Positions 5,120 through 32,279 of a stretch of 64,000 bases of DNA are shown here, one piece after another. The position numbers and the translations under genes are program-made. Numbering within the stretch: position 1 is the stretch's first letter; every line of letters starts with the position of its first letter. The notes beneath the pieces were generated by a model. That model had not been told where the DNA came from. It did not search any database and worked only from the letters and a program-made list of their open reading frames with translations. This DNA comes from a virus: positions 1 to 64,000 of the IMG/VR virus record IMGVR_UViG_3300036832_000548, one strand, 5' to 3'.

Positions 5120-5585
5120 CAAATTCGCCGTGCAGTTCCTGAGCGGCATCTCGATACGCGGCAAATGCTTCAGCTTTAGTTTTGAAACGGCCCAGATGAA
5201 TAAAATGCCCGTTGACTGATATTGTTGCTCGCCATGGTCGCTGTTTGATCGCTGCTGAATATGAAACGCCTTTAAATCCGCTAGCGTTGTTTTTATTTTT
5301 CGGACGGTTCTGTTGGTTCTGTGATCGTGTTGAAAGACGGAGATTCGTGAAGCGATTATCCGTGCCCTTGCCGTTGCGATGATCAATCCATTCGGACGGC
5401 ATTGTGCCTGTCATCCACAGCCATGCGATACGATGCACGTAATAAGTTTTGTCAGCAACACGAACGACCAAATAGCCGTTTGTGAGCGTCCCTACTTTCT
5501 TGCCCGTAGTTCTGCGTTTGAGAAGGCCCGTATGCGGATCGTACACAAACAACTTTCGCACCCGAGACGATGTGAGCTTGGACAT
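5106..5585 (-). CDS. HNH homing endonuclease with AP2 domain
   Basis: HRIAW..IDHRNGKGTDNRFTNLR; SGFKGV..WRATI..LGRF..AYRDAAQELHGEFAR. Confidence 0.92.
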   Translation of the reverse strand: MSKLTSSRVRKLFVYDPHTGLLKRRTTGKKVGTLTNGYLVVRVADKTYYVHRIAWLWMTGTMPSEWIDHRNGKGTDNRFTNLRLSTRSQNQQNRPKNKNNASGFKGVSYSAAIKQRPWRATISVNGHFIHLGRFKTKAEAFAAYRDAAQELHGEFARPS

Positions 5586-5599
5586 AGCGAAAGCATAGC

Positions 5600-5695
5600 A
5601 TGAAATGGTGGGAGCGCCTGCTGATCGTGCTCGCCATCATGGGCGTGATGATCATCGCGCTCATCATCCTGTTGAGCTTCCCAACTCCACTGTGA
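5600..5695 (+). CDS. Small single-pass membrane peptide (31 aa)
   Basis: Hand-translated MKWWERLLIVLAIMGVMIIALIILLSFPTPL; fills an intergenic gap, below the ORF-track cutoff. Confidence 0.45.
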   Translation: MKWWERLLIVLAIMGVMIIALIILLSFPTPL

Positions 5696-5704
5696 GCAAA
5701 GATC

Positions 5705-6133
5705 GTGAGCACGCAGCACCCCACCGTGGAACTGATCGCCGGCGACGATTGGGAAATCGCCATCACGATGCTGGACGATGCGGGCAACCCGTTCGACCTC
5801 ACCGGCGCGACTATTTCATGGACGCTGATCGATGACGGCGGGCAACAGTTCATCGCACCGGACGAGGTGACCGTATCCGTCGCCACCGACCCCACGACCG
5901 GGGTCGCAACGGTCACCGTCCCCGGCACGGTCACCACCAGACTGAAGACATTCCTCTATCACGACGCCACGCGCATCGTCGTTGCAGGAGTAACCACAAC
6001 GATCTTGGTGGGCGACATCAAGGTCACCTCAGATCCGTTCGTGCCGCCCGTGCCGGTCTACAAGTTCACCAGCAAGGTGACAGGCGCGATGGGAGCGACT
6101 GAAGCTGCTGACACGGCTGATGTTGCAGCATAG
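5705..6133 (+). CDS. Putative virion beta-sandwich (BppU-N-like) protein with C-terminal ATEAAD motif
   Basis: GDDWEIAITMLDDAGNPFDLTGATISW pattern typical of phage structural adaptors; C-terminus GAMGATEAADTADVAA. Confidence 0.55.
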   Translation: MSTQHPTVELIAGDDWEIAITMLDDAGNPFDLTGATISWTLIDDGGQQFIAPDEVTVSVATDPTTGVATVTVPGTVTTRLKTFLYHDATRIVVAGVTTTILVGDIKVTSDPFVPPVPVYKFTSKVTGAMGATEAADTADVAA

Positions 6134-7390: not shown

Positions 7391-7417
7391 CTCCGATCTC
7401 CCTTGCAGGAGGCCATT

Positions 7418-17729: not shown

Positions 17730-18092
17730 GTGGCCCAGCGCATCGCAGGAACCGCGTTCTGCAAAGTCGATGGAAATATGCTGCCGCTGCGCGGGAACTT
17801 TACGGTCTCGCCCAGCTCGCTCGAGCGGACGTTTTTGGCCGGCCAGGATTATGTGCATGGCTACCAAGAACTGCCGCGCGTTCCGTGGATCGAAGGCGAC
17901 ATCAGCTCAACACCTGACATTTCGATGGAAGGCCTTGAGCAAATGATCGACGTGACCGTGACCGCAGAGCTGGCCAACGGCAAGGTGTATGTGCTGAAGG
18001 AGGCGGCCTGCAAGAGCGCGCTGGAAAACAACACCCGAGAGGGTCAGTTCCGCGTCAAGTTCGAAGGCACGACCTGCGAAGAGATTGGCTAG
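17730..18092 (+). CDS. Tail tube protein (Mu gpM-like)
   Basis: RIAGTAFCKVDG, GQDYVHGYQELP, VTAELANGKVYVL. Confidence 0.92.
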   Translation: MAQRIAGTAFCKVDGNMLPLRGNFTVSPSSLERTFLAGQDYVHGYQELPRVPWIEGDISSTPDISMEGLEQMIDVTVTAELANGKVYVLKEAACKSALENNTREGQFRVKFEGTTCEEIG

Positions 18093-18310
18093 TCGCCGCA
18101 GAGTTCTTCGACGGATTGCGCGGTCAGGTTCTCAGCAACCATGACCTCCAACAAGGCACGATCAGCGAATGGCGGCACGTCTTGGCCTGCCACCCAGCGG
18201 CGTATCGTGCGGGGAGCACGGCGCAAAAGCCGCGCCGCGTCCGTCTGGCTGAGTTCCAGTGTTTCGAGCAGCTCGCGCAAGCGTTGGGCTGATTTGGGAC
18301 GGCGAATCAT
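18089..18310 (-). CDS. Small XRE-like HTH regulator
   Basis: LELSQTDAARLLRRAPRTIRRWVAG; start trimmed to ATG 18310. Confidence 0.8.
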   Translation of the reverse strand: MIRRPKSAQRLRELLETLELSQTDAARLLRRAPRTIRRWVAGQDVPPFADRALLEVMVAENLTAQSVEELCGD

Positions 18311-18621
18311 GGGCGCGTGACCTCTGCAATTGTCGTCCAGACGATACGCCGCCCTCCCGAAAGTCTGCCTTTGATGTGGCAACGGCCGTTGATCTTGCAG
18401 ACGCTCAATATCCTGTTGATGGCATCGGCTCCGACGAACTTGGCGACAATGTCGGCGTCACACCACGAGTCCGGTCGATCAGCTTTCAAGAGATAGATGT
18501 CATCGTTTGCGTCCTTGGTCAGGACGCCACGACATGATTGGTACGGTCCGTGCGGACCTTGGGCATTGCCCGCGCTGGTGAGCGCGAGCAACGCTGCGGC
18601 GATGAGCAGAAGGCGCTTCAT
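18307..18621 (-). CDS. Small secreted Cys-containing protein
   Basis: Signal peptide MKRLLLIAAALLALTSAGNA; 4 Cys. Confidence 0.7.
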   Translation of the reverse strand: MKRLLLIAAALLALTSAGNAQGPHGPYQSCRGVLTKDANDDIYLLKADRPDSWCDADIVAKFVGADAINRILSVCKINGRCHIKGRLSGGRRIVWTTIAEVTRP

Positions 18622-19031
18622 TGTCGGGGTCCGTTGTTGGTTGAGCTGCCGACAAAGCGGCCCTGATCGTCATAGAACGAGCGCGAGTTGCCAATCCGCA
18701 CGGAGCTGCCCGCGAACGAACCTTGGCGATCATAGAAGCTCCGCGAGTTGCCGCGTTCCACGGACGACCCAGAGAACTGGCCCTGAGCGTCGTAGAACGA
18801 GCGCGTCTGCGCGTGGGCCGCGCCAATGAGGATGCTCATCAGCCAAAGCAGGATCGCCCAGAACACCGCTTTCTTGAAATAGAACCAGACCCAGAAGGCA
18901 TTGGCCTGATGGATCTCGCTGCGGACCTGAGCGAGACGAGCGCGGACGAGTTCCAGTTCCAGCGCCGCCAGTTCATCACGGGGCGGTAGCGGCTGCGGTC
19001 GATGCCGCCCCGGAAATTTGATGAGGGTCAT
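18618..19031 (-). CDS. Membrane/exported protein with three 20-aa repeats
   Basis: TM segment ending AAHA, then RSFYDxQGxFxGSS three times. Confidence 0.7.
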   Translation of the reverse strand: MTLIKFPGRHRPQPLPPRDELAALELELVRARLAQVRSEIHQANAFWVWFYFKKAVFWAILLWLMSILIGAAHAQTRSFYDAQGQFSGSSVERGNSRSFYDRQGSFAGSSVRIGNSRSFYDDQGRFVGSSTNNGPRQ

Positions 19032-19186
19032 GATCGCTTCGCCTCCAAAGGAGACACCAGACACAAAACGAGGATGATTATGAGGGCTGACTGCAGCACG
19101 ATAAGTGGCATGTCGATGGGCCAAAGCACAACGAGCATACCGCCGCCCAGCACGCCATAAACGAAGAGGCGGATGAGGGTGCTCAT
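19028..19186 (-). CDS. Small two-TM membrane protein
   Basis: MSTLIRLFVYGVLGGGMLVVLW..LIIILVLCLV; ATGA-coupled on both sides. Confidence 0.6.
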   Translation of the reverse strand: MSTLIRLFVYGVLGGGMLVVLWPIDMPLIVLQSALIIILVLCLVSPLEAKRS

Positions 19187-19296
19187 GTTAGCAATCCCAA
19201 GGTCAAAATACCGAAAATGATGAACAACGATGCGGCGGTTGACCAAAAACTCACCCAGCGGCTAAAGACGATCCTAGTTGCTTTCAACGTGGTCAT
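19183..19296 (-). CDS. Small membrane peptide (37 aa)
   Basis: Hand-translated MTTLKATRIVFSRWVSFWSTAASLFIIFGILTLGLLT; fills the gap with an ATGA overlap. Confidence 0.5.
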   Translation of the reverse strand: MTTLKATRIVFSRWVSFWSTAASLFIIFGILTLGLLT

Positions 19297-19299
19297 GAC

Positions 19300-19593
19300 T
19301 CAGCTTCCCATCGGATATTTGGCGGTGCCATAGATCTCATCGAGGAGTTCCGGGGGGCAGTGGAACGCGCGCTCGACACTGAACGGTTCCGTCATCTGCT
19401 TGCCCTTGTGGTCAGCGAAATGCACTGGGCCACCTTTCCACAGACGGTCCTTGCTGGGATCAAATCCAAACTTGGCCTTGATCTCGCGCACGAACCCTTT
19501 CGGATCGTCGCCCTCGTAGAAGATGATGCGACCCTGTGGGAACAGCTCACGCCACGTTGGCGTGCGCTTGGTCTTGGTCTTACGTTTGGTCAT
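19300..19593 (-). CDS. Hypothetical protein
   Basis: GAGGA SD before MTKRK. Confidence 0.65.
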   Translation of the reverse strand: MTKRKTKTKRTPTWRELFPQGRIIFYEGDDPKGFVREIKAKFGFDPSKDRLWKGGPVHFADHKGKQMTEPFSVERAFHCPPELLDEIYGTAKYPMGS

Positions 19594-19604
19594 GACTTTC
19601 CTCC

Positions 19605-19976
19605 TTATTCCTCGATGAACGCGCCGCAATCGATGCAGCGGCCACGACTGTCGCTGCGATGGTGGCAATGCTTCTGGATCTCTTCGATCTGTTCGTTGAC
19701 GAGGGTGAGCACCGCAGACCAATCATCAGTCTGCAATACGGGCAGGCCGTCATCAGCGAACTGGCCATCGCCGTCGAGGCGGTACACAGAAAAGCGGCAA
19801 CCCTCCTGATGCTCGCGATCCGCTGGGTCGAGATAGTCAATCCAGATGCTCAGCGGGCACTCTGCGTGATCGAAATGCGGCATCGTGTCGTTGTGCCAAG
19901 AGTTGTCGAGCCACTCTGCAGGAAGCGCAGGCATGGTGGCGGGATCAAACTTTGGGAACTCTTCGCGATAGCTCAT
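19605..19976 (-). CDS. Hypothetical phage protein
   Basis: MSYREEFP..W.DNSWHND.MP; C-terminal CxHxxxxGxCxxC. Confidence 0.7.
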   Translation of the reverse strand: MSYREEFPKFDPATMPALPAEWLDNSWHNDTMPHFDHAECPLSIWIDYLDPADREHQEGCRFSVYRLDGDGQFADDGLPVLQTDDWSAVLTLVNEQIEEIQKHCHHRSDSRGRCIDCGAFIEE

Positions 19977-20158
19977 TTGGACACCTTGAGGTGGAACCAC
20001 TCCACTATGAAATTGCACGGCTGCGAATAGTGGCGCATCTCGCTGGTGATTAAACGAGCCTTAAGCGCGTTGTAAATTTCCTGATCACTGTGGAAGAGCC
20101 GCAGCGCGTGATAGGTCGCCCCGTTAGGACAGCCCTGCAATCGTTCAAGAACGGTCAT
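19973..20158 (-). CDS. Hypothetical protein
   Basis: ATGA-coupled within the minus-strand run. Confidence 0.5.
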   Translation of the reverse strand: MTVLERLQGCPNGATYHALRLFHSDQEIYNALKARLITSEMRHYSQPCNFIVEWFHLKVSK

Positions 20159-20640
20159 TGTCCACCCCATGTCTCGCCAGCGGTGAGCGCGACCTCATAC
20201 GGATCAGGAGCAAGCTTGAACAACCGCTCCATGTCAGCATCGTACTCCGTGACCTGATCTGGGCTGAGAGCGGGCGAATAATCCGCGCCGCGTGTGTCAG
20301 GATGGAAACCAAGGCCAATCCTGACAGCCCACTTGCGGGCGATGCCGTACATCTCGCACCACTCAAGTGCGGCCTGCAGATTGGGGAGCGTGCCGTCAGC
20401 CAGAACGTCGCCCTCAAGACGGTAGAGGCCAACGAGATACGGTTCGTCCAACTTGTCGCCAAGGCCACTACCCTGATCGCAAATCCACAAGTAGCCATCT
20501 GGGACGATCTGCTCCCAACACAGGCACCCGCCGCCCGTGTGCGCGACCGTATAGTTGCCAGCAGCAGCAACCGCCTTGCCAACCTCGCTCGCTTGCGCGG
20601 CAGCAGTGGTCGCATCAAGCCAAGTGAAAAAGTTACTCAC
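20155..20640 (-). CDS. Hypothetical phage protein
   Basis: GTG start after GGAGG; HTGGGC and GFHPDTRGADY motifs. Confidence 0.65.
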   Translation of the reverse strand: MSNFFTWLDATTAAAQASEVGKAVAAAGNYTVAHTGGGCLCWEQIVPDGYLWICDQGSGLGDKLDEPYLVGLYRLEGDVLADGTLPNLQAALEWCEMYGIARKWAVRIGLGFHPDTRGADYSPALSPDQVTEYDADMERLFKLAPDPYEVALTAGETWGGQ

Positions 20641-20965
20641 GGGGATCCTCCTGCAGCGCCAATGGTGACTCTGAGTTCCAAGCCTCATCGCTCTCAGCGT
20701 CGTCGCAGCCGGGATCGAGGTGCGTGCCATACGGCGGCAAATAAACCTTGCCCTTCCATTCCTGCTGTAACGCTGCGGTGACTTTTTCGTCGTCCACGCT
20801 CACAAGCATGGCGCACCAAATTTCGTTGAGACCATTTTCAGCGATGGTGCCAACTGTGCCAGCGGGCACGATGCACTCTGGAAAGATGTCGAGCGGCTCC
20901 GCAAAGCGGACGCGCGTCCCTTCCGGGAGTTTCGCGAGTTCAAGCCAAGTCAATTGACGGGTCAT
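20633..20965 (-). CDS. Hypothetical protein
   Basis: Coupled ORF in the minus-strand run. Confidence 0.6.
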   Translation of the reverse strand: MTRQLTWLELAKLPEGTRVRFAEPLDIFPECIVPAGTVGTIAENGLNEIWCAMLVSVDDEKVTAALQQEWKGKVYLPPYGTHLDPGCDDAESDEAWNSESPLALQEDPRE

Positions 20966-21129
20966 GACTTTCTCTTTCGCTGCTTCTGGCCATCGCTGTG
21001 GCCCCAATCGTAAATCGCTTGATCCAAGCCACCGGGAAAATAGTCGCCTTGTTCGCCGTCTTGGAATCCGGTGCGATAGGTTTCGAGTTCCGTTCCGGTC
21101 AGTTCGTAGGCTTTGCGTTTCTTCTTCAT
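20962..21129 (-). CDS. Hypothetical protein
   Basis: YxxGFxDG/YDWGHSDG pattern; coupled ORF. Confidence 0.55.
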   Translation of the reverse strand: MKKKRKAYELTGTELETYRTGFQDGEQGDYFPGGLDQAIYDWGHSDGQKQRKRKS

Positions 21130-21133
21130 GATC

Positions 21134-21340
21134 TCAGTCCATGTAGCCGTGGGGATACTGAGTCTTGGCGTGGTCGCGGCACGAATGGCACGGCTCGACG
21201 TGAGCGTTCCAACCTTTTGCAACACGCTTTTCGGTGCCGTCATATTTGGAGCGGTAGACATAGAATTTAGCGGTCTCGCGAACTAGTTCACCGCGTGAGA
21301 TACACGGGCCAACGGGAGAGAAGGTTCTAACGGTAGTCAT
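21134..21340 (-). CDS. Hypothetical protein
   Basis: GAGGA SD; HVEPCHSCRDH. Confidence 0.65.
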   Translation of the reverse strand: MTTVRTFSPVGPCISRGELVRETAKFYVYRSKYDGTEKRVAKGWNAHVEPCHSCRDHAKTQYPHGYMD

Positions 21341-21394
21341 TTGGTTCCTCGTTTGTTTGATCGGTGGGGAGGGGCCGTAACCCCTCCGGGCTGA

Positions 21395-21592
21395 TCAAGC
21401 GCGGTACCTGTCGATATAGGCAACCGCCTCGTCTACGCTCTTAAATCCGTCCTTACAGTCATACATGCTGTTGAACTTGTTATAGATGCTGTAAGTGCCT
21501 GCGGCTTTAGTCGGATATTTTTCTGACCAGAACTCGATTGAATAGTTGCGGTAAGAGATCCGGCCAAATTCGTCTGTCTGTGCTTTGCTCAT
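21395..21592 (-). CDS. Hypothetical protein, first gene of the inverted cassette
   Basis: AT-richer ORF MSKAQTDEFG directly downstream of the predicted promoter. Confidence 0.6.
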   Translation of the reverse strand: MSKAQTDEFGRISYRNYSIEFWSEKYPTKAAGTYSIYNKFNSMYDCKDGFKSVDEAVAYIDRYRA

Positions 21593-21615
21593 TTCTTTCT
21601 CTCTTTGTTGAAATG

Positions 21616-21651
21616 AATATAGGACAATCCGTCCTAGGACGCAAGGTCCTA
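21616..21651 (-). promoter_or_regulatory. Sigma70-like promoter overlapped by two TAGGAC-N5-GTCCTA palindromes
   Basis: Minus strand TTGCGT (21644-21639)-N17-TATATT (21621-21616); palindromes at 21620-21636 and 21635-21651. Confidence 0.7.
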
Positions 21652-21739
21652 GTGTGCGGCATCTTGGCTGGAATAACAGCCTGTTTTTCAAGGGGGTAAC
21701 TACGACGGTAACCAGAGGTTGACAAGAGGAACACACACA

Positions 21740-22105
21740 ATGGACGACACGACCAATAAACCCGCCCCGGAAGAGGCCATCGATTTCGAGAGCAGCCCGC
21801 AGCTCGATCAGGAAGCAAACCTTGAGCACACGTTGTCGAAGCCCATCCAAGCGCATGGCGAGGAGTTGCGCATTCTCAGATGGCGCGAGCCAACCGGAGC
21901 TGACATCGAGCGCGCAGGCAATCCCATCGTGATCGATTTCTTTGGCGAGAAGCCCACCCTGACATTCAACGAAAAGAAGATGGGCGCGATGATCTCCGCG
22001 CTCTGTCAGATCCCGCCCTCGAGCGTGCGCCAGCTAACCGCAGCGGACTGGAATTCCATCGCTTGGAAGCTAGTCCGTTTTTTTATGCCGCAGGGGGCGG
22101 CGTAA
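21740..22105 (+). CDS. Tail assembly chaperone (Mu gp41-like)
   Basis: LSKPIQAHGEE...LRWREPTGADI, IPPSSVRQLTAADW; precedes tape measure genes. Confidence 0.85.
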   Translation: MDDTTNKPAPEEAIDFESSPQLDQEANLEHTLSKPIQAHGEELRILRWREPTGADIERAGNPIVIDFFGEKPTLTFNEKKMGAMISALCQIPPSSVRQLTAADWNSIAWKLVRFFMPQGAA

Positions 22106-22281
22106 TCGCGCCCGACAGCATCGTGCTGATGTGTTACGAGCTGGCGTATTTCTATCACATTGATCCGCGCTTGTTCCTTGAGCAGACCATCAGCGAGCTG
22201 GCGCGCCACAAGCTGTGGACTGCGCGCCTGACTGAACGGATTCGCGCTGCGCAAGAGGCAGAGTCCGGTTCTGAGAATTAG
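22078..22281 (+). other. Putative -1 programmed frameshift (T7 run) and extended chaperone frame
   Basis: CGT TTT TTT ATG near the chaperone end; the -1 frame stays open to TAG 22281 (CYELAYFYHIDP..TISEL). Confidence 0.75.
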
Positions 22282-22284
22282 GCA

Positions 22285-24468
22285 ATGCCTGACCAGACAG
22301 TCGAGATCAAACTAGTATTGCGGGACGAGCTGTCCAAGCAGCTTGCCCCTATTGTTGCGCAGGTCAGGCAGCTCAATCAGGCGATCGATACTACCCGCCC
22401 GCAACAGCACATGGAGCGGTTCGGCGGGGCCGTCCAGGGCGTTCGCCGCGAACTCTCCGCACTATCGCAGATCACTTTCGGCGGGTTGATCGGCGGCGGC
22501 ATTGTCGCTGGCTTAATGGCCACGGCAAAGGCGCTGGGCGACATGGCCAACCGTGGCCTCCAGCTCCGCTACAGTGCCGACGCGCTGGGCGTCACCACCG
22601 GGATGCTCAATCAATTTTCCGACGCCATGATGGGGCTCGGGAAATCGCGTGAGGCAGGTCAAGCAAGCATCGAGGCAGCAACCAAGTCGCTGCGCGAGCT
22701 ACAGATCGAAGGAGGACAGTCAAAGCTTTTCACTGAACTCGAGCGCGCCGGCGGCGAAACCGGCCAACGCCTCGCGCAAGAACTGGCGAAGGAGATCGCT
22801 GGACCGCGCGGCCTGCAGGGCGGTCTTGAGTATGCGATGCGCCGCATGGCGGGGATGCGACAGGAGTCAGCCGCCAAGTTCGCAGAAATTCTGGGGCTGG
22901 GGCCGGGGTTCGGTCGGGAGGCCGCGCGGGATTATCTGCAAGTCCTCGGGCAGCTCCCCAAGCGACTCGAACTTTCGCATCAGCAGCAGCTCGAGCTGGC
23001 AAAGGCCAATGCGAGCCTCGGCATCTCTTGGGACAATATCAAGACTACGCTGGCCGGATCGCTGCTCCCGATCTTCGCGCAGCTCACTCACACGCTCGAT
23101 CAGTTCCTGCAATCCAAGGCCGGTCAGGAATTCACCAAGCAGCTCGAATCATGGGGCCGCGAGATGAATGCCGCGCTCAAGGAGTGGCTTGAGGGCGGCG
23201 GCTTAACGCGACTGACCGAAACGCTCGGGACAGCGGTTGGCACGTTGAGGCAGGGATTTGAGGCCGCTGACAAAGTGGTCACGGCCATGGGAACGGATTG
23301 GGGGCACGTCCTAGGTGCGCTTGGGATCGCGGTGTTCGCCTCACAGTTGGCGGGCATTGCTTCTAGCCTCCGATTGATTGGAGGCATTCCCGGCATCGCC
23401 TTGATACTTGGTAGCCTCGCGCTCATCACAAAGCCAAAGATCGAGGACATCAAAGACCCGGCAAAACGTGCGCAAGCGGAAAAGGACGTAGCGGGCGGCG
23501 CAGCACAACCCGGCGACCCGTGGGCACTTTGGAATATTCTCAAGGATCTGTTGAAAGGCAACATCGATTGGAAATCGATGTTGCGCGAAGATCCGCTCCT
23601 TCCCTTTCCGGGCAGTGGGCAATCCAAGACTCCATCAGAGAAGCGCGCCGACGACGCAGCAAAAAAGAACGCGCAACAGCGCATCACCGAAGAGTTCAGA
23701 GATCTCGATTACGAACTCCAGAAGCTCAATCAATACCTCGCGCCGGGTGGACCAGAAGGCAGCGCAGGATCAAGCGGTTTCCAACTGCCTCCGTATCAGC
23801 AAAAAGATTTCACGTTCTATTATCCCGGTGCCAGCGGTGCGAAGGGAATGGAAGGACCGTTTGAAACCGCGCGAGCGGGATTGGACAAGCAATTCACTCC
23901 TAAAACACTTGATGATTTTCGGTTGGGGCTCACGCCCGCTGTTACGGTTGCTGGACCTGCGAGCAAATTGGGACAGTCGATCAACTTAGGCGATATCGAA
24001 TATCGCAGCCCGATTGATGGCAAAGTCTATCAGGTCCCTAATGTGCCGGGTTATGTGCATGATCGCGGCGGGGCATTCACAGAAGATAAACCAAACAAAC
24101 GCGACATCGCCGTTGGCGATTTTCGTGGCCTCAATCCTGTCACCGGCTTGCCATTCAATGACGCTACCGCAGAAGCGTTCAGCCGCGGGAACAAGCAATT
24201 TGCCGCCGGCACATTTCCAACAGCGTCAGGCTACGATGAAGCGGGCTTTACCGGCGAAGGCGTTGTCGGCACCGATCCGATCACGTCGCATCTCGCCACG
24301 CGCGATTCTCAATCCGTCAATGGCACCGCTACCGTCGACATAGACGTTGGCGGCATGACGCAAGCGATGCGAAATCCGAATGACCTGTTCAAGCCGCAAC
24401 CACTCGGCGGTTCAGTGCAAATGCAAAACGTGACGCGCCCAGACAACAATCCTATGAGTTTCCAGTAA
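22285..24468 (+). CDS. Tape-measure-like protein 1 with 3D/DPBB-like lytic transglycosylase domain
   Basis: Helical Ala/Gly-rich N-terminus; FTFYYP..VTVAG..VHDRGGAF..RDIA near the C-terminus. Confidence 0.7.
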   Translation: MPDQTVEIKLVLRDELSKQLAPIVAQVRQLNQAIDTTRPQQHMERFGGAVQGVRRELSALSQITFGGLIGGGIVAGLMATAKALGDMANRGLQLRYSADALGVTTGMLNQFSDAMMGLGKSREAGQASIEAATKSLRELQIEGGQSKLFTELERAGGETGQRLAQELAKEIAGPRGLQGGLEYAMRRMAGMRQESAAKFAEILGLGPGFGREAARDYLQVLGQLPKRLELSHQQQLELAKANASLGISWDNIKTTLAGSLLPIFAQLTHTLDQFLQSKAGQEFTKQLESWGREMNAALKEWLEGGGLTRLTETLGTAVGTLRQGFEAADKVVTAMGTDWGHVLGALGIAVFASQLAGIASSLRLIGGIPGIALILGSLALITKPKIEDIKDPAKRAQAEKDVAGGAAQPGDPWALWNILKDLLKGNIDWKSMLREDPLLPFPGSGQSKTPSEKRADDAAKKNAQQRITEEFRDLDYELQKLNQYLAPGGPEGSAGSSGFQLPPYQQKDFTFYYPGASGAKGMEGPFETARAGLDKQFTPKTLDDFRLGLTPAVTVAGPASKLGQSINLGDIEYRSPIDGKVYQVPNVPGYVHDRGGAFTEDKPNKRDIAVGDFRGLNPVTGLPFNDATAEAFSRGNKQFAAGTFPTASGYDEAGFTGEGVVGTDPITSHLATRDSQSVNGTATVDIDVGGMTQAMRNPNDLFKPQPLGGSVQMQNVTRPDNNPMSFQ

Positions 24469-27366
24469 ATGGTAGCTCGCAAACCACAAACCATCGAGGT
24501 CGTCGTTCGCGACGAGGTGACGCGCGCTCTTGAGCGTGCGCGCTCGCATATGCGCCAAGTCGGTGGCGGCAAGGAAACACTGGGCGGCATAACGGGCGCG
24601 ATCAAGGGACTCGAGGGTGGCATCGAGTCAGTCGCACGCGGCATCAGCCGCGAGTTTGGCACGCTGGCCCGCATGGCGGGCGGCAGCTTGCTGGGTGCTG
24701 GTTTTGTCGCTGGCCTCAACAGGACGGCGCAGGCGCTGGGCAATGTGGCGCGGGCCGCAACGCAGCAGCACTATCTCGCTGAACAAATCGGGCTGACGAC
24801 GCAGCAGCTCGCAAATCTCACGGCTCGCGGTCGCGCGTTCGGCTTGGGTGTTGAGCAGACCACGGCTGGCATTTCGAGTCTCTCCAAAAATCTGCGCGAT
24901 CTGAAGATGCTCGGTCAGAACGCGCCCATTTATAAGTCACTCACGGAAGCGGGCGGCGGTAGTGGTCAGCGGTTTGGCGACAAGCTCATAGCAGCGGTCA
25001 GGGGACCTGGCGGCTACGACGCTGGCGTCCATACGTTTATCAAACTGATGTCGGAGACGAACGCTCAGGCGCAGAGCAAGCTCTCTGATATGTTTAATCT
25101 AGGTTCGATTGCGTTCCGCGATCTCGATTCTCTTGGTCTGGGCGATCTTCCAAAGCCGATTGTATTGTCTGATTCGGCAGCGCGCGATCTCACGCGCTCG
25201 ACGGCGCTTGCAGATCAGTCGTGGACAAATATCAAAAACACTGTCGGCGGCGCGTTGATGCCGGCGGTCGAACAGTTGGCGCGAACGCTTGACGCATTCC
25301 TGCAAGGACCTGGCGCAGGAATGCTCAAACAGTTTACAGACTGGGTTTCCAAGATCAACATCCCATGGGGAGCAATCGGCACCGCGCTGGCGAGTGCAGC
25401 CGGAATATTAAGCATGGCCTTCATCTGGGTGAAGAAGGCAATCGTGGAGGTCACTCCGATAGTCGATAAAATCGGCGGCTGGGGACCGCTTCTGCTCACG
25501 GCGGGTGCCGTGATCCAATACGGCAACGTCAACAAGGTCACGCTGAGCTTGTATGTCATCGGCGGTGCGTTGACCGTCATTGGCGAGCACGACTGGGTAC
25601 TCAAAGCACTCGCTGACGCCAGCAGATTGGCAATGGGGACGGGCAAACTGTCATCGCAGTTTGGATCGCCCTATTCGAGGAACATCGAGGACCGTCGCGG
25701 GCAGCCGTCCATACAGATGCCGCCGAATGCCAAGGCCATGCGCGGCGGCTACAACCTCATGAGCAGCACCACTGGCTCGAGCGACGACGATGACGATATC
25801 ACCAATGCGTTGAGTAATCAGCTGCAAAGCACCAGCGCGCAAGTCATGCAGCTGGCCAATATCGTGGCAACGCAGGGACTGACTCCCGATCAGCTCGGCG
25901 GCGGGACTGCAGGAGGAGGACAGATCCGCATTCCCAGCGCTGGTGGCGGCGGTGGCGGGTACACGCCGCGCCCGCGAGCTGCACCGCCGCCTTCGACACC
26001 ACGGACAACAACGCCACCGTCGACGCCACCGTCGACGCCGCCAGCACCGCCTCCATCGACGCCGCCAGTAACACCACCAACGCCATCTTCAACACCGTCG
26101 AGGCCATCCTCGACAACGCCTCCAGGGCCGACACCGGGACCAACACAGCCGCCGCCCGGAGGTACTAATAAGGGCGTGTTGCTGTTCGCGCACGGCCTTA
26201 CCGGACGCTATGCGGGGATGCACGGCAGCATCGCGCAAGTCGAAGCAGACGTTAAGCGATACGCGGCAGCGCACGGCTATAGCAGCGTTGAGTTCATTTA
26301 CGGCTCGCCCGCCGAACAAGAACGGCAAATGCTGGATCGGGTTAAGCGCGGAGGCGTCGGCGGCCTTTTGGGCTTTTCGGCTGGCGCTGGTCCTGCGCGA
26401 CGGGTCAGCAATGCGACCGGTGTGCCGGCGGTTACGACCGGAGCACCAAGAGTTCCAGGCGACGTGAGCCCCGCGAAACGTCACATGGACCAAATCCGCG
26501 TGCTGGCGGAACAGGAAGAAAGGAAACGACTACAACAAAATCCGACCGCGCAGCCACAAGTGCCAACCGCGAACCCGCAACAGCCGACCACCGGGCGGTC
26601 GGGATTGGTTTCGCCGGTCACCGGATCATTCGGTGAGAATTCGTCCAACCCATACGGCGCTGCTCGCAAGGGTGGGCGACCGCACTCCGGCGTCGATTGG
26701 CGCGCGGAGAATGGGACGCCAGCGGTTGCGATGATTGGCGGTGTCGTTACGCACGTCGGCTACGATAGAGGCGGTTACGACAACTATGCGGTGGTGAAGG
26801 GTGACGACGGCGTCTATCGTCGATATGCCTATCACGGGCGATCGCTTGTCCACAAAGGACAGCGGGTCGAGCAAAAGCAACCGCTTGGCATCATTGATCG
26901 GCGCCATCTGCATTACGAAGAAATCCACCCGAAATTGGCGAATGGCAAACCGAATCCGGTGTATGCGGAATTTGAGCGGAATGGCAACGCCAGCACCAGC
27001 TATCAACGCGGCACGTCCGATCCGTCGCAGACGCTCAATATGCCATATCGGACCAGGGTCACCGCAGGCGAACCGCTTGGCGGCCAACCTGCAACGGCAC
27101 AGCCTGCGCAAACGTCGCCAATCGTCTATTCGAACGAGGACGAGATCGAGCGGCTCAAATATAAAAAAGAATTGGACGAACAATATCCGCAGGGCGGCTA
27201 TACGCCGATTCCAAAAGGTCGCATCAGCGGCCTTGTCAATCTCCAGATCAATGTGCGCGGGCCGCGCGGCGTGAAAGTATCTGGCGAAGGTGCCGGGGTC
27301 GTAGGGCCTGCGAGCATCGACCGATCCGATCCCAGCGGCGGCATCGAAGGCTTCTCACCGGCATAA
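24469..27366 (+). CDS. Tape-measure-like protein 2 with alpha/beta-hydrolase-like and M23 peptidase domains
   Basis: Paralogous N-terminus; Pro/Thr linker; FAHG..GFSAG; HSGVDW..YAYH..HLHYE. Confidence 0.8.
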   Translation: MVARKPQTIEVVVRDEVTRALERARSHMRQVGGGKETLGGITGAIKGLEGGIESVARGISREFGTLARMAGGSLLGAGFVAGLNRTAQALGNVARAATQQHYLAEQIGLTTQQLANLTARGRAFGLGVEQTTAGISSLSKNLRDLKMLGQNAPIYKSLTEAGGGSGQRFGDKLIAAVRGPGGYDAGVHTFIKLMSETNAQAQSKLSDMFNLGSIAFRDLDSLGLGDLPKPIVLSDSAARDLTRSTALADQSWTNIKNTVGGALMPAVEQLARTLDAFLQGPGAGMLKQFTDWVSKINIPWGAIGTALASAAGILSMAFIWVKKAIVEVTPIVDKIGGWGPLLLTAGAVIQYGNVNKVTLSLYVIGGALTVIGEHDWVLKALADASRLAMGTGKLSSQFGSPYSRNIEDRRGQPSIQMPPNAKAMRGGYNLMSSTTGSSDDDDDITNALSNQLQSTSAQVMQLANIVATQGLTPDQLGGGTAGGGQIRIPSAGGGGGGYTPRPRAAPPPSTPRTTTPPSTPPSTPPAPPPSTPPVTPPTPSSTPSRPSSTTPPGPTPGPTQPPPGGTNKGVLLFAHGLTGRYAGMHGSIAQVEADVKRYAAAHGYSSVEFIYGSPAEQERQMLDRVKRGGVGGLLGFSAGAGPARRVSNATGVPAVTTGAPRVPGDVSPAKRHMDQIRVLAEQEERKRLQQNPTAQPQVPTANPQQPTTGRSGLVSPVTGSFGENSSNPYGAARKGGRPHSGVDWRAENGTPAVAMIGGVVTHVGYDRGGYDNYAVVKGDDGVYRRYAYHGRSLVHKGQRVEQKQPLGIIDRRHLHYEEIHPKLANGKPNPVYAEFERNGNASTSYQRGTSDPSQTLNMPYRTRVTAGEPLGGQPATAQPAQTSPIVYSNEDEIERLKYKKELDEQYPQGGYTPIPKGRISGLVNLQINVRGPRGVKVSGEGAGVVGPASIDRSDPSGGIEGFSPA

Positions 27367-27369
27367 AAA

Positions 27370-29883
27370 ATGGCTCAAGGCACCAGATCACCCACCGTCG
27401 AGATCCTCGTCAGGGATGAGGCTACGGTTGCGCTCGAGCGCGAGCGCGCACGCATCCGAGCGGCTGCGGCCAATCATGAGCTATTTACTGGACTCGAGTC
27501 AGCCTTCAAAGGATTCGAAGGCGCAATCCAGTCGCTGGCGCGGACGGTCAATCGTGAATTTAGAACGATATTGGGACTAACCGGCGCGGGCGGCTTTCTC
27601 GGAGCTGGCCTTGTCCTCGCCATCGACAAGACGGCACAAGCCGTCAGCGGCCTCGCGCGTTCCGCTGAGGAGAACAGATATCTAGCCGACACGCTTGGCG
27701 TGACCACCGCGCAGCTCAACAACTTGGTTGCGCGCGGTCAGGCGCTCGGCATGAGCACGGAGCAAAGCAGATCAGGCATCGAGAGCCTGCTCCGCGCGAT
27801 GCGCGATCTAAGACTGATGGGGCAGGATGCGCCGGTCTATAAGGCGCTGGTGGAGGCTGGCGGGGCGAGCGGCCAACGTGTTGGTGATCAGCTCATCGCT
27901 ATGGTGAAGGGACCGGGCGGCTACGAGGCAGGCATCCGTCAATTTGCCAAACTGCAATCGGGGATGAACCTCGATGCCCAGCGTAAATTGTCGGAAATTT
28001 TCGGCACAAGTTCACTTGCATTCCGCGATCTCTATACCGTCAAGAATATCCCTTCGATTATCGATCTTGCTGGTCCACAGGCGCGCCGTCTCAGCATCGC
28101 GATGGCGAGTCTGAATGTCTCGTTCGATAATTTGAAGACCACGCTTGCTGGCGCGGTGATGCCAGCGTTCGAAGGATTATCGCAAACACTCGACAAGTTC
28201 TTGCAGGGTCCTGGCAAGAAGATCGTTCAGCAATTCGCGGATTGGCTGTCAACGCTCAATATCCCGTGGGACAGAATCGCCAAAGGCTTGGTGGGCGCGG
28301 TCGAGGCGCTGCGAGACATTTTTGCATGGGGCAAGAAAACCGCAGAGGATCTCGAGCCGATCATCGGGAAACCCAAATTGTGGGGACCCGTATTGAAAAA
28401 GATGGCTGATCTGGTCATTCCCGGATTCGTCAATCATCTGCTGACTTTTGCCAAGGCATTGATGGCCGTTGGCCAGCATGCGGATGTGATCGCGAAGATA
28501 ACCGCAGCCGTCCGCGGCGGCGAAGCTCCCGCGCCGCCAACTGCGAAGCCATCAGCATCACCGTTGCTGCCCATGCCGACGCCGCAACAACTGCGTGGCA
28601 CTGGCCGCACGCAAGGCCAGAGTCCGTCAGCGCCGCGAGCGATGGGCCTGCTATCGACTGGTGGTGGTTATACTCCCGGTGGAGGCGAGGACCCGCAAGA
28701 TACCGATCAACTGAGCGAACAGGTACACGCGACATCGCGGCAAGTGTTGCAGCTCGCGAACTACATATCTTCGCAGGCTCTCACCACGGACGTGAGCGGT
28801 GCGGGCGGATTGGCTGGGCTGGCTGGACAAATCCGCACGGGCAGAGTTGGCCGCGCTGGCACAACAATCGGCGGCGGTGGTGGAGGCACGCGCGGCGGTG
28901 GTGGTGGCCGACGCGGCGGTGGTGGAGACAGTGGCATCCCTGACACCGGGACAAACGCAACCGGCACCACGAAAGGCGTCACGTCAGAAGGCATGGCACT
29001 GCTTGACACCATCGCGACTTGGGAAGCGGAGCCAGCTTTCAAAAACGGTCAGCGCGCTGGCTGGAATACAATGATTGGCAACGTCCGCTTCGATCCGAAT
29101 ACGGACGAGCACCCTAAAAGAGCCTATCCGTGGCTGCGCGGTTATGTTGGGGGGGCTGGTGTTTCCTATGCGTCTGGTCGCTATCAGGAAACGATCAACA
29201 CCTATTATGAGAACGTCGCGCGCAGCAAGCGATTGCACCCCGGCATGAAGGTTTCGGGCTGGTCGCCAGAGGCCCAGAACATTCGCAACTGGGACAAGGC
29301 ACAAGATATTTACGCGCGCCGTTATAGAAATCTCGGCATTCCAAGTCTGACCGGCAACTTGCAAAAAGATTTGGAAGCCAACAAAAACAACCCAGCAATG
29401 ATTGGAAGGATGGCGCGGGCACTTAGTGGTGAATGGACGACGGCCCCTGGTGGACACGAACGCTCAAAACAAACGGGCAAGAGCGAGAGCCAATATTCAA
29501 CGCAATATCTAAAAATGCTCGCGAGGACATCGCAAGATCCCGCGCTGGCCAATCAAAGCGATCCTGCCTCGCCGTCCTCATCGTCAGCATCGTCATCGCC
29601 AACAGCGCCGACATCGCCGCCTGCGCCAACGTCACCAATTGTCTGGTCGAACCTGGACGAGATCGCGCGTCTTGAGCGGGAAGCACGGGAGGCGGCAAGC
29701 CTACCAGCTGGCGGGTTCACCCCAATTCCGCGGCAAGGCGGCTCGAGCAGGATCAATCTGAACGTCAACGTGCGCGGGCGCAGTGCAAGGGTGTCGTCGG
29801 AAAGCAGCGGCGACATGGGATCGGCAACGATCAGCCGGGACAAAGACCCAAGCGGCGGCATCGAAGGCTTCTCACCGGGATAA
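27370..29883 (+). CDS. Tape-measure-like protein 3 with lambda-lysozyme-like domain
   Basis: Paralogous N-terminus; ALLDTIATWE..ASGRYQ..TY..WSPEAQ..LSGEWTTAPG. Confidence 0.8.
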   Translation: MAQGTRSPTVEILVRDEATVALERERARIRAAAANHELFTGLESAFKGFEGAIQSLARTVNREFRTILGLTGAGGFLGAGLVLAIDKTAQAVSGLARSAEENRYLADTLGVTTAQLNNLVARGQALGMSTEQSRSGIESLLRAMRDLRLMGQDAPVYKALVEAGGASGQRVGDQLIAMVKGPGGYEAGIRQFAKLQSGMNLDAQRKLSEIFGTSSLAFRDLYTVKNIPSIIDLAGPQARRLSIAMASLNVSFDNLKTTLAGAVMPAFEGLSQTLDKFLQGPGKKIVQQFADWLSTLNIPWDRIAKGLVGAVEALRDIFAWGKKTAEDLEPIIGKPKLWGPVLKKMADLVIPGFVNHLLTFAKALMAVGQHADVIAKITAAVRGGEAPAPPTAKPSASPLLPMPTPQQLRGTGRTQGQSPSAPRAMGLLSTGGGYTPGGGEDPQDTDQLSEQVHATSRQVLQLANYISSQALTTDVSGAGGLAGLAGQIRTGRVGRAGTTIGGGGGGTRGGGGGRRGGGGDSGIPDTGTNATGTTKGVTSEGMALLDTIATWEAEPAFKNGQRAGWNTMIGNVRFDPNTDEHPKRAYPWLRGYVGGAGVSYASGRYQETINTYYENVARSKRLHPGMKVSGWSPEAQNIRNWDKAQDIYARRYRNLGIPSLTGNLQKDLEANKNNPAMIGRMARALSGEWTTAPGGHERSKQTGKSESQYSTQYLKMLARTSQDPALANQSDPASPSSSSASSSPTAPTSPPAPTSPIVWSNLDEIARLEREAREAASLPAGGFTPIPRQGGSSRINLNVNVRGRSARVSSESSGDMGSATISRDKDPSGGIEGFSPG

Positions 29884-29900
29884 ATTGAGGCTCGACTAAC

Positions 29901-30455
29901 TTGGCTTCCATACGTGATAATCATAACGTCTGGCGCGACAATCTGGTGCCCGCCTCGTTTCGCGGCGCGGTCTTTCATGTGGAGACGAGCGCGCGATCGA
30001 GCGGACGCAGGACAGTCGTCCATGAGTATCCGAAACGGAATAACCCCTATGCCGAGGACATGGGCCGCAGCGCGATCCGCTGGCAGATCACGGGCTATTT
30101 GATCCTGCGCGACAAGGGCATTCGTGGCAACCTGCTCAGCCAGATTGGAGACATGATCAACGCGCTCGAGGCGGACGGCCCTGGCGTTTTGATTCATCCG
30201 ACGCTGGGCGAGATGCTGGTCCAGTGCGAGAGATATTCGTACAGCGACAAGCGCACGGCCGGCGGTTACATCGAGTGGGATATGCAGTTCGTGGAGGCGG
30301 GATCTGGGATATTGACTGCAGTGATCAATACTGCAGCCATGCTGGTCATGACCTCGACCGCAGCTGAGACAAGCGCAGCGACGGCAATCAAAAGCGATAC
30401 AGCTCCGCTGCAGAGCACGATCAAACCTCAACCCAGCCAAACCGTAGCGGCATGA
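29901..30455 (+). CDS. Mu gpN-like DNA circularisation protein, N-terminal part
   Basis: WRDNLVPASFRGAVF, GRRTVVHEYP, YAEDMGR, GVLIHPTLG, FVEAG. Confidence 0.9.
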   Translation: MASIRDNHNVWRDNLVPASFRGAVFHVETSARSSGRRTVVHEYPKRNNPYAEDMGRSAIRWQITGYLILRDKGIRGNLLSQIGDMINALEADGPGVLIHPTLGEMLVQCERYSYSDKRTAGGYIEWDMQFVEAGSGILTAVINTAAMLVMTSTAAETSAATAIKSDTAPLQSTIKPQPSQTVAA

Positions 30456-31123
30456 GCACGCCATCTGAACTAGCTGAAATCAACGGCATCGTTAGTCGGA
30501 TAACTGCGAATTTGATGCGGTTTAACGGCATGCGCGGTCAGACCGGTTCTGCGTTGCGTCAAGCCTGCGGCGATCTTAATGCACGCACCAGCACCTATGT
30601 GGTTGATGGAACATTCGCCAATCGCTTGTTGAACTGCTTTCTCCTCGCAACCGTGGCCGGCATTAGTCTTGATTGGATGGACCAGGTCGTTGCTGGACTT
30701 ATTGCTGAACAGCCGACCACTCTGATGTCGACCAGTGTCGTACAGAATGCGTTGATCATGGCTATCGCGCAGGAAGGGCGGATCATTGCAGCGACAGTCT
30801 ATGTCAGTCGCGATGATGTCGATGCGACCATGCAACGGATGAATAATTGGTTCGAAACCATCAAGGACATCATCGCGGATACCATGAGCGGTCCAGGCTA
30901 CGAGGCATTCATCACGCTTACGGGATCGATCACCCGGCATCTGACAGACAGCGCGCGACCGTTGCCGCGGATACTACGCTATCAGATGCCCATGGTGATG
31001 CCGGGGTTGTTGGCCAGCCAATACATCTACGGCGACGGGAGCCGGGATGAAGAACTGGCGGCAGAAAACAAGGTCGTCCATCCCCTGTTCATGCCACTGG
31101 CATTGCGGGCCTTGAGCGCGTGA
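30452..31123 (+). CDS. Mu gpN-like protein, C-terminal part
   Basis: LPRILRY..MPGLLASQYIYGDGSRDEELAAENKVVHPLFMP. Confidence 0.8.
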   Translation: MSTPSELAEINGIVSRITANLMRFNGMRGQTGSALRQACGDLNARTSTYVVDGTFANRLLNCFLLATVAGISLDWMDQVVAGLIAEQPTTLMSTSVVQNALIMAIAQEGRIIAATVYVSRDDVDATMQRMNNWFETIKDIIADTMSGPGYEAFITLTGSITRHLTDSARPLPRILRYQMPMVMPGLLASQYIYGDGSRDEELAAENKVVHPLFMPLALRALSA

Positions 31124-31130
31124 GGCAATC

Positions 31131-32279
31131 GTGCCGTTCAGAGCTTCAGAAATCGCAGTCATTACTGTCGGTGGCATGGATTTCAAGGATTGGGAAAATG
31201 TCACGGTCAAGATGGTGGAAGGAGAATCGAACCACAGTTTCAAGCTGTCGGTGTCGGAAGGAGCCCCGCTGACCAAAGATTTTGGGAGTCTGAAGATCAA
31301 GCCAGGGGATCATTGTACGATCACGCTGGGCGGTGAGCTGGCCATTTCTGGATACGTCGAGACGCGGCAAGTCGGCTACAACGCAACACAGCATGGCATT
31401 CAGATCATTGGGCACAGCTACAATAAGGCGGCGGCTGATGGCTCCGTCATGCACAAGACGATGGAGTTCAAGAACCAATCGCTGCAACAAATCGGGACGC
31501 AACTCCTGAAACCGTTCGGCATCCAGTTTGTCCCTAAGACGGCAATGCCTACCAAGCAATTTCCACGGGTGAACGTGGCGCCAGGTATGAGTGCGTGGCA
31601 TCAACTCGATATCCTTGCGCGCCAGCGGCAGGTGACCCTAGGGACTGACAAGCAAGGCAACGTGACAGGACGGACGTTTTTTCAGGGCGGCGGCGATGCG
31701 CTGGTCGAGGGCGTAAATATTCTTGATGGTCAAGAGGTCATGACCATGAACATGGGCGACGGGCCGCTCAATGAGAAAAGTCAGACACCCGGCAGCAATT
31801 TCAATTTTGGGCGCGAGGCCGCAGGCCCAACGTCAAAAACCGATAGCCGACCACTGGGTGAGTCTGGGAAGGGCGTATATGCGCCGCAGGTTGGATTGAC
31901 TGAGCATCACGGCGACAAGGACGACACCAAGGCGCGCGGCAATATGGAACAACAACGCCGCGGCCAAGAGCAGTTGCAAGTGACCATAGTGGTGCAGGGG
32001 TGGATGAGACCGTCAGGCGGCCTTTGGGAGCCGGGGACGAAGGTCATGGTGCAATCGCCCATGCTGTTGGTTAGTGAATCGCTCAAGCTCATGTCAGCGA
32101 CATTTACGCAAGACAACAAGTCAGGGACGCGCACGACGCTGGAGCTCACGCGCGAAACCGGCAGCGAACAGGACGCCAAGGACGGGAAGGCACCTTACAA
32201 CATGGATCCGAAAACCCCTGGCGGCGTGGACGATCCAAGCGATCCGTCCGGGGGCCGACCGGGATTCTCGCCGGGATAA
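31131..32279 (+). CDS. Baseplate hub (Mu gp44-like)
   Basis: IKPGDHCTITLGGELAISGYV, LVEGVNIL, VQGW..GGLWEPG, GTRTTLEL. Confidence 0.88.
   Translation: MPFRASEIAVITVGGMDFKDWENVTVKMVEGESNHSFKLSVSEGAPLTKDFGSLKIKPGDHCTITLGGELAISGYVETRQVGYNATQHGIQIIGHSYNKAAADGSVMHKTMEFKNQSLQQIGTQLLKPFGIQFVPKTAMPTKQFPRVNVAPGMSAWHQLDILARQRQVTLGTDKQGNVTGRTFFQGGGDALVEGVNILDGQEVMTMNMGDGPLNEKSQTPGSNFNFGREAAGPTSKTDSRPLGESGKGVYAPQVGLTEHHGDKDDTKARGNMEQQRRGQEQLQVTIVVQGWMRPSGGLWEPGTKVMVQSPMLLVSESLKLMSATFTQDNKSGTRTTLELTRETGSEQDAKDGKAPYNMDPKTPGGVDDPSDPSGGRPGFSPG

Follow-up and report, generated by a model that had tools for sequence, protein, structure and literature searches.

Three adjacent tape measure paralogues, probably with different muralytic cargo, in the tail operon of an uncultured soil phage

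Tape measure proteins (TMPs) with lytic domains are textbook knowledge, and the TMP is generally treated as the product of one gene that assembles into one homotrimer. The single TMP of phage T5, pb2, reportedly has an embedded muralytic domain. Further single proteins of this kind include Sit of P1, a myophage TMP with an SLT domain (PMC9024508), gp95 of phiCbK, a TMP with a CHAP domain (PMC3556154), and Tmp of TM4, which carries a muralytic domain (PMC1796659). Adjacent TMP-like genes have been annotated as pairs in the Staphylococcus jumbo phages named MarsHill, Madawaska, and Machias (bioRxiv 10.1101/2020.12.14.422802) and in Staphylococcus phage DC4 (genes 00259 and 00260; PMC10638138). 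Here, we describe three consecutive genes, T1, T2, and T3, at the TMP position of an uncultured soil phage represented by IMG/VR record IMGVR_UViG_3300036832_000548 (82,591 bases, linear, 100% complete as estimated by CheckV); the window analysed is the first 64 kb of this record (positions 1 to 64,000).

An original prediction, made from the letters of this window, had proposed three tandem TMP paralogues with different envelope-degrading domains. From sequence comparisons, T1-T3 are very probably TMP paralogues with muralytic cargo, and the overall best explanation of our analyses, to which we assign a probability of roughly 0.5, is that their cargo has been swapped and that the proteins would act as a mixed set.

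Paralogy, gene arrangement, and assembly

The window holds a Mu-type contractile-tail operon on its + strand, in which sheath, tube, G/GT chaperone, T1-T3, DNA-circulation protein, baseplate hub, and the gp45-type spike that follows the hub stand in the order of Mu genes 39-45, and T1-T3 fill the slot of Mu's only TMP, gp42, between the frameshifted G/GT chaperone and hub genes (Table 1). In BLASTP comparisons, T1 and T2 share 31% identity over 373 amino acids (aa; E 4e-39), T1 and T3 32% over 335 aa (E 1e-34), and T2 and T3 43% over 473 aa (E 1e-99), and similarity between T2 and T3 resumes after the cargo, as predicted, in a second block at the C-termini (53% over the last 81 aa, E 7e-19). 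Three adjacent paralogues sharing an N-terminal scaffold at the TMP position are thus borne out (31-43% identity, E 1e-34 to 1e-99), the motifs quoted in the original prediction (xTVEIxxxRDE, AGGxxGQR, SWxNIKxT..LDxFLQ, and SPIVxSN..NVRG) are all present, the low-complexity linkers of T2 and T3 exist, and the positions proposed for the cargo were about right (Table 1). A six-frame search of the whole record found this scaffold in T1, T2, and T3 alone.

Among PHROG TMP families, phrog_2276 ("tail length tape measure protein") matches T1 at E 4e-11 over residues 5-373 and phrog_9570 does so at E 4.4e-8; T3 matches the same two families more weakly (9.1e-5 and 5e-4) and also phrog_2013 ("lytic tail protein"), which is the sole PHROG match of the T2 scaffold (7.7e-5). 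Hydropathy analysis revealed hydrophobic, glycine-rich segments in each protein (T1 57-85 and 340-386; T2 300-332 and 354-372; T3 66-86 and 348-367). Profiles of the T1 and of the T2/T3 C-terminal domains both match the C-termini of many single-copy relatives, from which we take the two types to be homologous, and each paralogue therefore appears to be a complete TMP with scaffold, cargo slot, and C-terminal domain. With the boundaries that we set, the non-cargo lengths are nearly equal, at ~547, 557, and 556 residues for T1, T2, and T3.

Measured against the related locus L007, every segment of T1 and T2 is under purifying selection, the ratio of nonsynonymous to synonymous substitution rates (dN/dS) being 0.10-0.34 (0.17-0.34 in T1, 0.10-0.27 in T2, and 0.23 in the 360-residue T2 scaffold). 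Orthologues of T3 (P0002-P0004) are intact and 61-71% identical to it over the first 380 residues, with P0004 annotated by JGI as "muramidase (phage lysozyme)".

No spacer separates the T1 stop from the start of T2, and T3 begins three bases past the T2 stop; neither junction shows a clear Shine-Dalgarno sequence. The three genes lie in one reading frame, separated by TAA (T1-T2) and by TAA plus AAA (T2-T3), an arrangement that would also suit a single T1-T2-T3 polyprotein joined by stop read-through. We considered this and rejected it as having next to no chance: counted from coordinates, the two copies share a reading frame in about half of the related arrays, those of L006 overlap by ATGA in another frame, each copy keeps a conserved, Met-started N-terminus, and the stops bear no mark of leakiness.

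Since the record is a metagenome assembly, the array might instead be a chimera of strain variants, or it might consist of redundant duplicates en route to loss. The 3' ends of T2 and T3 would favor a chimera, being 83-86% identical in nucleotides over ~50 bases, in register, with an exact run of ~28 bases. This one notable repeat, however, cannot put the start of T3 behind T2, and the divergence of the three proteins lies far past strain variation. A Logan contig of run X1, 23,262 bases long, spans positions 21000-31500 with 0 differences at a flat depth of 15. A second assembler thus reproduces the whole region, and two-copy arrays stand on many independent contigs. All copies are open and under purifying selection, which argues against decay as well. 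Artefact and decay are therefore largely refuted already, and we give them only a very slight chance. Pieces 97-100% identical to T2 and T3 also occur in two further soil studies. Separately, a contig of run X2, from a different soil study (depth 5.2), matches the window as far as 27450 and resumes at 29986; the 26 letters in between are unrelated, and the reading frame is not preserved. This contig could derive from a relative that has no T3 or from an unrelated organism.

Table 1. Coordinates of T1-T3, their cargo, the C-terminal tag, and neighboring tail genes in the window
Feature	Position (nt)	Strand	Details
T1, TMP paralogue 1, 727 aa	22285-24468	+	N-scaffold ~1-380; G/S linker near 487-497; C-terminal domain 665-727, end ..QMQNVTRPDNNPMSFQ
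T1 cargo, ~498-664	23776-24276	+	
T2, TMP paralogue 2, 965 aa	24469-27366	+	N-scaffold ~1-370; P/T/S-rich linker ~476-565; C-terminal domain 884-965, end DPSGGIEGFSPA
T2 cargo, GFSxG...H (Ser/His) domain, ~565-690	26161-26538	+	Ser637, His672; GFSAG
T2 cargo, M23, 738-817	26680-26919	+	
T3, TMP paralogue 3, 837 aa	27370-29883	+	N-scaffold ~1-370; G-rich linker ~475-530; C-terminal domain 756-837, end DPSGGIEGFSPG
T3 cargo, ~538-720	28981-29529	+	Glu552; GRYQ at 603; P/S-rich linker after module
C-terminal tag	T2 27328-27366; T3 29845-29883; hub 32241-32279	+	Ends DPSGGIEGFSPA; DPSGGIEGFSPG; DPSGGRPGFSPG
Tail sheath	15816-17651	+	
Tail tube	17730-18092	+	PF10618
Small-gene block, 3.6 kb	18089-21856	minus	Between tube and chaperone genes
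G/GT-type tail assembly chaperone	21719-22105 and -1 frame extension 22063-22281	+	PF10109 (Phage_TAC_7) E 1.2e-11; phrog_166
DNA-circulation protein (Mu gp43 type), two genes	29901-30455 and 30452-31123	+	PF07157 E 1.3e-24; phrog_184 N-part and C-part
Baseplate hub (Mu gp44/GpP type)	31131-32279	+	PF22255, PF21683, PF22174, PF21929; C-terminal extension ending in tag DPSGGRPGFSPG

Cargo modules and their exchange

The M23 peptidase that had been predicted in T2 is confirmed by PF01551 (E 2.4e-14; 53.7 bits against a cut-off of 28.7). It contains H739-x3-D743 and H813-x-H815, which we take to be the zinc-ligand motifs HxxxD and HxH of M23 enzymes, and M23 chains of the PDB match T2 at E 2.3e-8 to 1e-4, the best being 9k2v_E ("Internal protein", E 2.3e-8).

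Upstream of the M23 module, the second predicted T2 activity, a GxSxG hydrolase, corresponds to a conserved domain for which only 27 matching proteins (E up to 0.001) were found among 1.84 billion representatives. All of the aligned members (24 of 24) keep G-F-S-x-G, the pattern expected of a nucleophile elbow (GxSxG) in an alpha/beta-hydrolase-type enzyme, as well as a His further downstream, with no invariant acid between them, and no other part of T2 is constrained as strongly as this Ser/His domain (dN/dS 0.105). A Pfam family lies on the domain in none of the 24 members, and the domain profile found no PDB match. Peptidoglycan hydrolase domains often accompany it in the aligned members, namely Phage_lysozyme2 in 5 of 24, VanY in two, and M23 and Amidase_2 in one each. 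Hence, the conserved domain with its Ser and His stands, "ester hydrolase" was a guess only, and a serine hydrolase is a reasonable guess; the family is rare and unnamed, and a candidate for a new family of envelope hydrolases.

For T3, a lambda-lysozyme-like module had been proposed, and support for it comes through an intermediate. Compared directly, the cargo and lambda R show no significant similarity (BLASTP E 1.3, hhalign 3%). Against an annotated GH104 protein from Synechococcus phage DSL-LC02, the cargo profile scores hhalign 94%, E 1.5e-7 (tblastn E 1e-2), and that protein in turn matches lambda R at E 1e-4 over motifs common to the T3 cargo. Colinear with GH104 and lambda R, the T3 module has a Glu after LDxxA, GRYQ, SPxxQ, and WxSxPGG. 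Glu552, invariant in 3 of 3 rows, stands opposite a lambda R Glu in the hhalign block, and that lambda R residue is presumably the catalytic Glu. The Atlas model of the T3 cargo resembles "GH24" clusters with template modeling (TM) scores of 0.69/0.61 over 160 residues. Searches of Pfam, PHROG, and NCBIfam with the T3 cargo, and of the PDB with the whole protein or the cargo profile, gave no match. Altogether, the T3 cargo is probably lambda-lysozyme/GH104-like.

The 3D/DPBB-like fold proposed for the T1 cargo was not confirmed. This module, seen only in L007 and P0008, has no Pfam match at E up to 1 and none in PHROGs, NCBIfam, or the PDB (whole protein and cargo profile). Even with E allowed up to 10, PF06725 (3D) has no match in the genome, yet it matches 8 of 14 control genomes, and comparison with the DPBB_1 region of relative L030 gave an hhalign probability of 0.2%. 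The Atlas leads, i.e., a feature score of 0.81 to a 3D cluster and TM scores of 0.44-0.46 to MltA/3D clusters, are within the chance range, a feature score of 0.8 being reached by shuffled proteins a third of the time. Searches with tblastn gave only noise at E 0.6, a local profile search gave nothing beyond L007, and word-based searches with the T1 and the T3 cargo found one near-identical, nameless fragment each. The T1 cargo is under purifying selection (dN/dS 0.17 against L007).

Cargo varies widely among relatives. We took a Pfam census of 57 of the 64 full-length unique members (L010 copy 1, L016, L055, L060, L073, L085, and L095 were left out), in which M23 occurs 8 times, Phage_lysozyme2 and SLT 3 times each, Amidase_2, Glucosaminidase, and DPBB_1 twice each, and Phage_lysozyme, M15_4, and CHAP once each. 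First copies of two-copy relatives carry Glucosaminidase in 2 of 10 cases (L028 and L029) and no named cargo in the other 8, and the second copies (n=9) have M23 in 6 cases, SLT in 1, DPBB_1 plus M15_4 in 1, and nothing in 1. M15/VanY-like motifs read by eye in P0005-P0007 were dropped, having no Pfam backing.

Cargo and scaffold are also discordant in several pairs. The M23 cassettes of T2 and of the second copy of L010 are 75% identical on scaffolds that are 32% identical, a distant 1179-aa TMP of L080, which also contains a copy of the Ser/His domain, has a module 55% identical to that of T3, and P0002 joins a T3-type scaffold to a different, unnamed cargo. Because scaffold and cargo have similar dN/dS in the pair of window and L007 (0.18 and 0.17), we read this discordance as cassette exchange rather than slower evolution of the cargo.

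Relatives, duplication history, and neighboring genes

The survey of related phages that the original prediction had suggested found both variable copy number and cargo swapping. It was anchored on the neighboring DNA-circulation gene, which is independent of TMP gene number, and found 94 related viral loci, 80 of which were kept. Copies were counted with an iterated hidden Markov model of the scaffold scored over all + strand open reading frames (ORFs). The tally covered 92 sources (91 loci and the window), and an array counted as complete when it was flanked upstream by the chaperone and downstream by the anchor and had no truncated copy; with 47 sources set aside as incomplete, 45 complete arrays remained, 38 of them distinct at 95% identity. 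One copy is present in 23 of these 38 arrays, two copies in 14, and three copies in 1, the window. L036, among the incomplete sources, has at least three TMP copies, its chaperone side being missing. In L033, L036, L038, L045, and L071, the hub (gp44-type) and spike (gp45-type) lie between the TMP genes and the DNA-circulation gene, an order unlike that of Mu or the window, and what separates the last TMP from the anchor in these lineages is hub and spike ORFs rather than extra TMPs.

A maximum-likelihood tree (IQ-TREE quick search, LG+G4) was built from 72 representatives of 102 scaffold rows, merged at 95% identity and with N-terminally cut or short matches excluded. T1 falls in a clade of first copies of close relatives (12 rows, SH-aLRT 99) and T2 and T3 in a clade of second copies (17 rows, 99). 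Because both clades show matching internal grouping, the duplication that separated T1 from T2/T3 appears to be old, with both copies kept throughout. T2 groups with the L007 second copy and P0007, T3 with P0002-P0004, and the two groups are sisters (100), which places the T2/T3 duplication, on the tree, as the younger one, yet before the split of the window phage from several others. In addition, the tree pairs the copies of a single array with each other as closest kin in L066 (100), L075 (94), L040 (94), L033 (98), L045 (100), and L080 (93; flagged as a long-branch join), so TMP duplication has happened repeatedly and independently.

Metagenome scans for the genomic context of the T3 orthologues, with alignment A8 and with P0004, gave no relative. 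Among 50,697 phage records, tblastn of T2 matched only M23 modules, in 4 records, so no cultured phage of that collection has the T2 scaffold at the BLAST level. A profile search of genome contigs with the DNA-circulation alignment, bearing on host or prophage, gave no match.

Around T1-T3, a slippery T_TTT_TTT (a T7 run, ~22080-22090) lies in the overlap with the -1 chaperone ORF, and a G/GT chaperone pair also precedes the TMP arrays of relatives. The minus-strand block between tube and chaperone looks like a phage-specific insertion, judging by two relatives: in L006 the tube gene (5316-5681) is directly followed by the chaperone gene (5697-6086), and in L008 one 116-aa ORF stands between them. 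The DNA-circulation protein, encoded by one 495-aa gene in Mu (coordinates of the Mu record), comes here in two parts, an N-part of 184 aa and a C-part of 223 aa, whose genes overlap by 4 bases; the same split occurs in L008, L009, and L012, which makes it a conserved state rather than a broken gene. Further upstream, one 763-aa ORF (7403-9694) matches both PF04586 (prohead protease) and PF05065 (capsid), i.e., a protease-capsid fusion.

Possible mode of action and comparison with known systems

The pattern DPSGGxxxFSP[AG]-stop forms a C-terminal tag on T2, T3, and the hub, its only three occurrences in the six frames of the 82.6-kb genome. Related second copies end in DP[ST]GGGxI[QE]SPA; the tag is found on most but not all of them, being missing in L024, L029, and L030, and the hub of L009 also bears it. 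An internal ..ISRDPTGG.. of the large terminase resembles the tag region; it lies inside the nuclease domain and was taken as chance. As the tag of T2 and T3 is otherwise found only on the hub protein, T1 alone, with what would be the ancestral C-terminus, might set tail length, with T2 and T3 as TMP-derived tail lysins that use the scaffold for chaperone loading and are held by the tag at the hub. The C-terminal motif of T1 (..QMQ..SFQ), which is of the type of many first copies, would suit such a division of labor, as would the annotation of one of the two TMP-like genes of Staphylococcus jumbo phages as a "tail lysin" (bioRxiv 10.1101/2020.12.14.422802). However, T2 and T3 retain the whole scaffold instead of a short loading signal, and that of T2 is under selection; T1 has a cargo slot too, first copies of two relatives carry a glucosaminidase, and three of the related second copies do without the tag. 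One ruler with two passengers is thus, in our judgment, improbable.

A different division would be one of virions, with homotrimers of one TMP kind per tail and up to three virion classes per burst, as bet-hedging across hosts or cell-wall states. Since each paralogue is complete as a TMP, N- and C-terminal domains included, and one kind suffices in the single-copy relatives (23 of 38 arrays), this is conceivable, and the near-equal non-cargo lengths, within the boundaries that we set, would give equal tails either way. The C-termini of the T1 and T2/3 types, however, have diverged, and the tag shared with the hub is only on T2 and T3, which looks like place-specific specialization; tight gene coupling, moreover, favors co-synthesis at one site. 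We consider separate homotrimers unlikely.

The mixed set that we prefer is suggested by the trimeric state of TMPs in solved tails together with the nearly equal non-cargo lengths, and co-assembly of T1, T2, and T3 in one tail also by genes that look translationally coupled and by paralogues long co-inherited. In JBD30, for example, three TMP chains form a C-terminal coiled coil in the baseplate (PMC11445458). From these considerations, co-assembly in one tail is a tentative reading whose chance falls slightly short of even.

Based on TMP biology, the late tail operon would supply T1-T3, probably through translational coupling. With the G/GT chaperone handling them, they would be enclosed in the lumen of the tail tube, C-termini toward the hub. 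Once the sheath has contracted, they would be expelled into the periplasm, where the cargo may cut peptidoglycan and the hydrophobic segments may help form a DNA conduit. One tail would then contain a mixed set of TMP chains, as opposed to there being three tail kinds, and the virion would combine glycan- with peptide-cleaving activities. A more specific and doubtful extension is an obligate heterotrimeric TMP with one chain per gene (2:1 in two-gene relatives), in which one ejection would deliver a glycan-cutting, a peptide-cutting, and a third, Ser/His activity; the linker-flanked slot might serve as a recombination cassette for quick re-equipping, and the tag of T2, T3, and hub as a docking peptide that fixes chain order.

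Several observations weigh against a mixed set of TMP paralogues with muralytic cargo. Pfam TMP models reach their cut-off on none of the three proteins, and hhalign gives the scaffold profiles a probability of <1% against Mu gp42, so membership in the TMP family rests on position and PHROG matches; in favor of membership, relatives have sub-threshold Pfam matches to TMP_2 (2.4e-4), TMP_3 (1.8e-3), and PhageMin_Tail (0.038), and undetectable similarity is common among fast-evolving TMPs. The Atlas models of the whole proteins are poor (pLDDT 0.48-0.49), and the T1 cargo is an orphan module that has no assigned fold or activity. Relatives with extra copies mostly have two genes, and a rule of one gene per trimer chain is therefore not general. 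A folded cargo of 170-300 residues would not fit the tube lumen unless stored unfolded, which is an assumption. Finally, the sample behind the X1 contig is probably that of the record, so this contig tests the assembler, not the biology, and none of the sequencing runs listed for this sequence is RNA.

If it holds, the TMP "ruler" may be a multi-chain delivery device, with duplication as a route to carrying several envelope-breaching enzymes. The two or three old, selected paralogues in 15 of 38 distinct arrays, arisen by repeated duplications, argue against the view of one gene and one homotrimer per TMP; heteromeric TMPs become testable, and the relatives provide a natural map of cargo-exchange sites in the TMP. 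In the literature that we searched, supplementary gene tables aside, neither tandem TMP paralogues nor a heteromeric TMP had been analysed, the jumbo-phage annotations being the nearest precedent.

Like P1 Sit, phiCbK gp95, TM4 Tmp, and T5 pb2, each protein described here is long, stands at the TMP position, has a hydrolase or other cargo near its C-terminal third, is presumably ejected into the envelope, and has an assumed helical N-part; unlike these, which are one gene and one protein each, the window has three paralogues with different cargo. The Staphylococcus jumbo phages likewise have long neighbors at the TMP locus, in their case two helical proteins that contain transmembrane segments and carry PF18013/PF00877 or M23 domains. 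Compared by annotation, these proteins differ in being ~2000 aa long, AR9-like, from phages of a Gram-positive host, and labeled "TMP" and "tail lysin/lysozyme", whereas the window has three copies and a Mu-type tail; in the available portions of the sources, the pairs are annotated with no analysis of paralogy, phylogeny, or stoichiometry. Mu gp42 (NC_000929, "tail length tape measure protein") has the same slot, the same gene order, and a similar size (690 aa against 727 aa for T1), yet it is one gene, its similarity lies below the hhalign level given above, and the Mu record annotates no muralytic domain. The internal protein of Anabaena phage A-4L (PDB 9k2v chain E; PMC12002296) is the closest solved M23 relative, and it is likewise described as virion-internal and as exiting to breach the envelope, with several proteins ejected together; it differs in belonging to a podophage, in being stored in the capsid rather than the tail, and in having no TMP scaffold, the M23 module alone being related. 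In comparison with lambda R (NC_001416) and the GH104 protein of DSL-LC02, the T3 module, whose activity is a prediction from sequence, is embedded in a TMP instead of being a free endolysin. Interest is tempered by what was known already, i.e., that TMPs with lytic domains are familiar and that adjacent TMP-like genes have been annotated in Staphylococcus jumbo phages; beyond these, what is new here is a copy-number survey, a relative dating of the duplications, the exchange of cassettes, and a Ser/His domain that has no name as yet.

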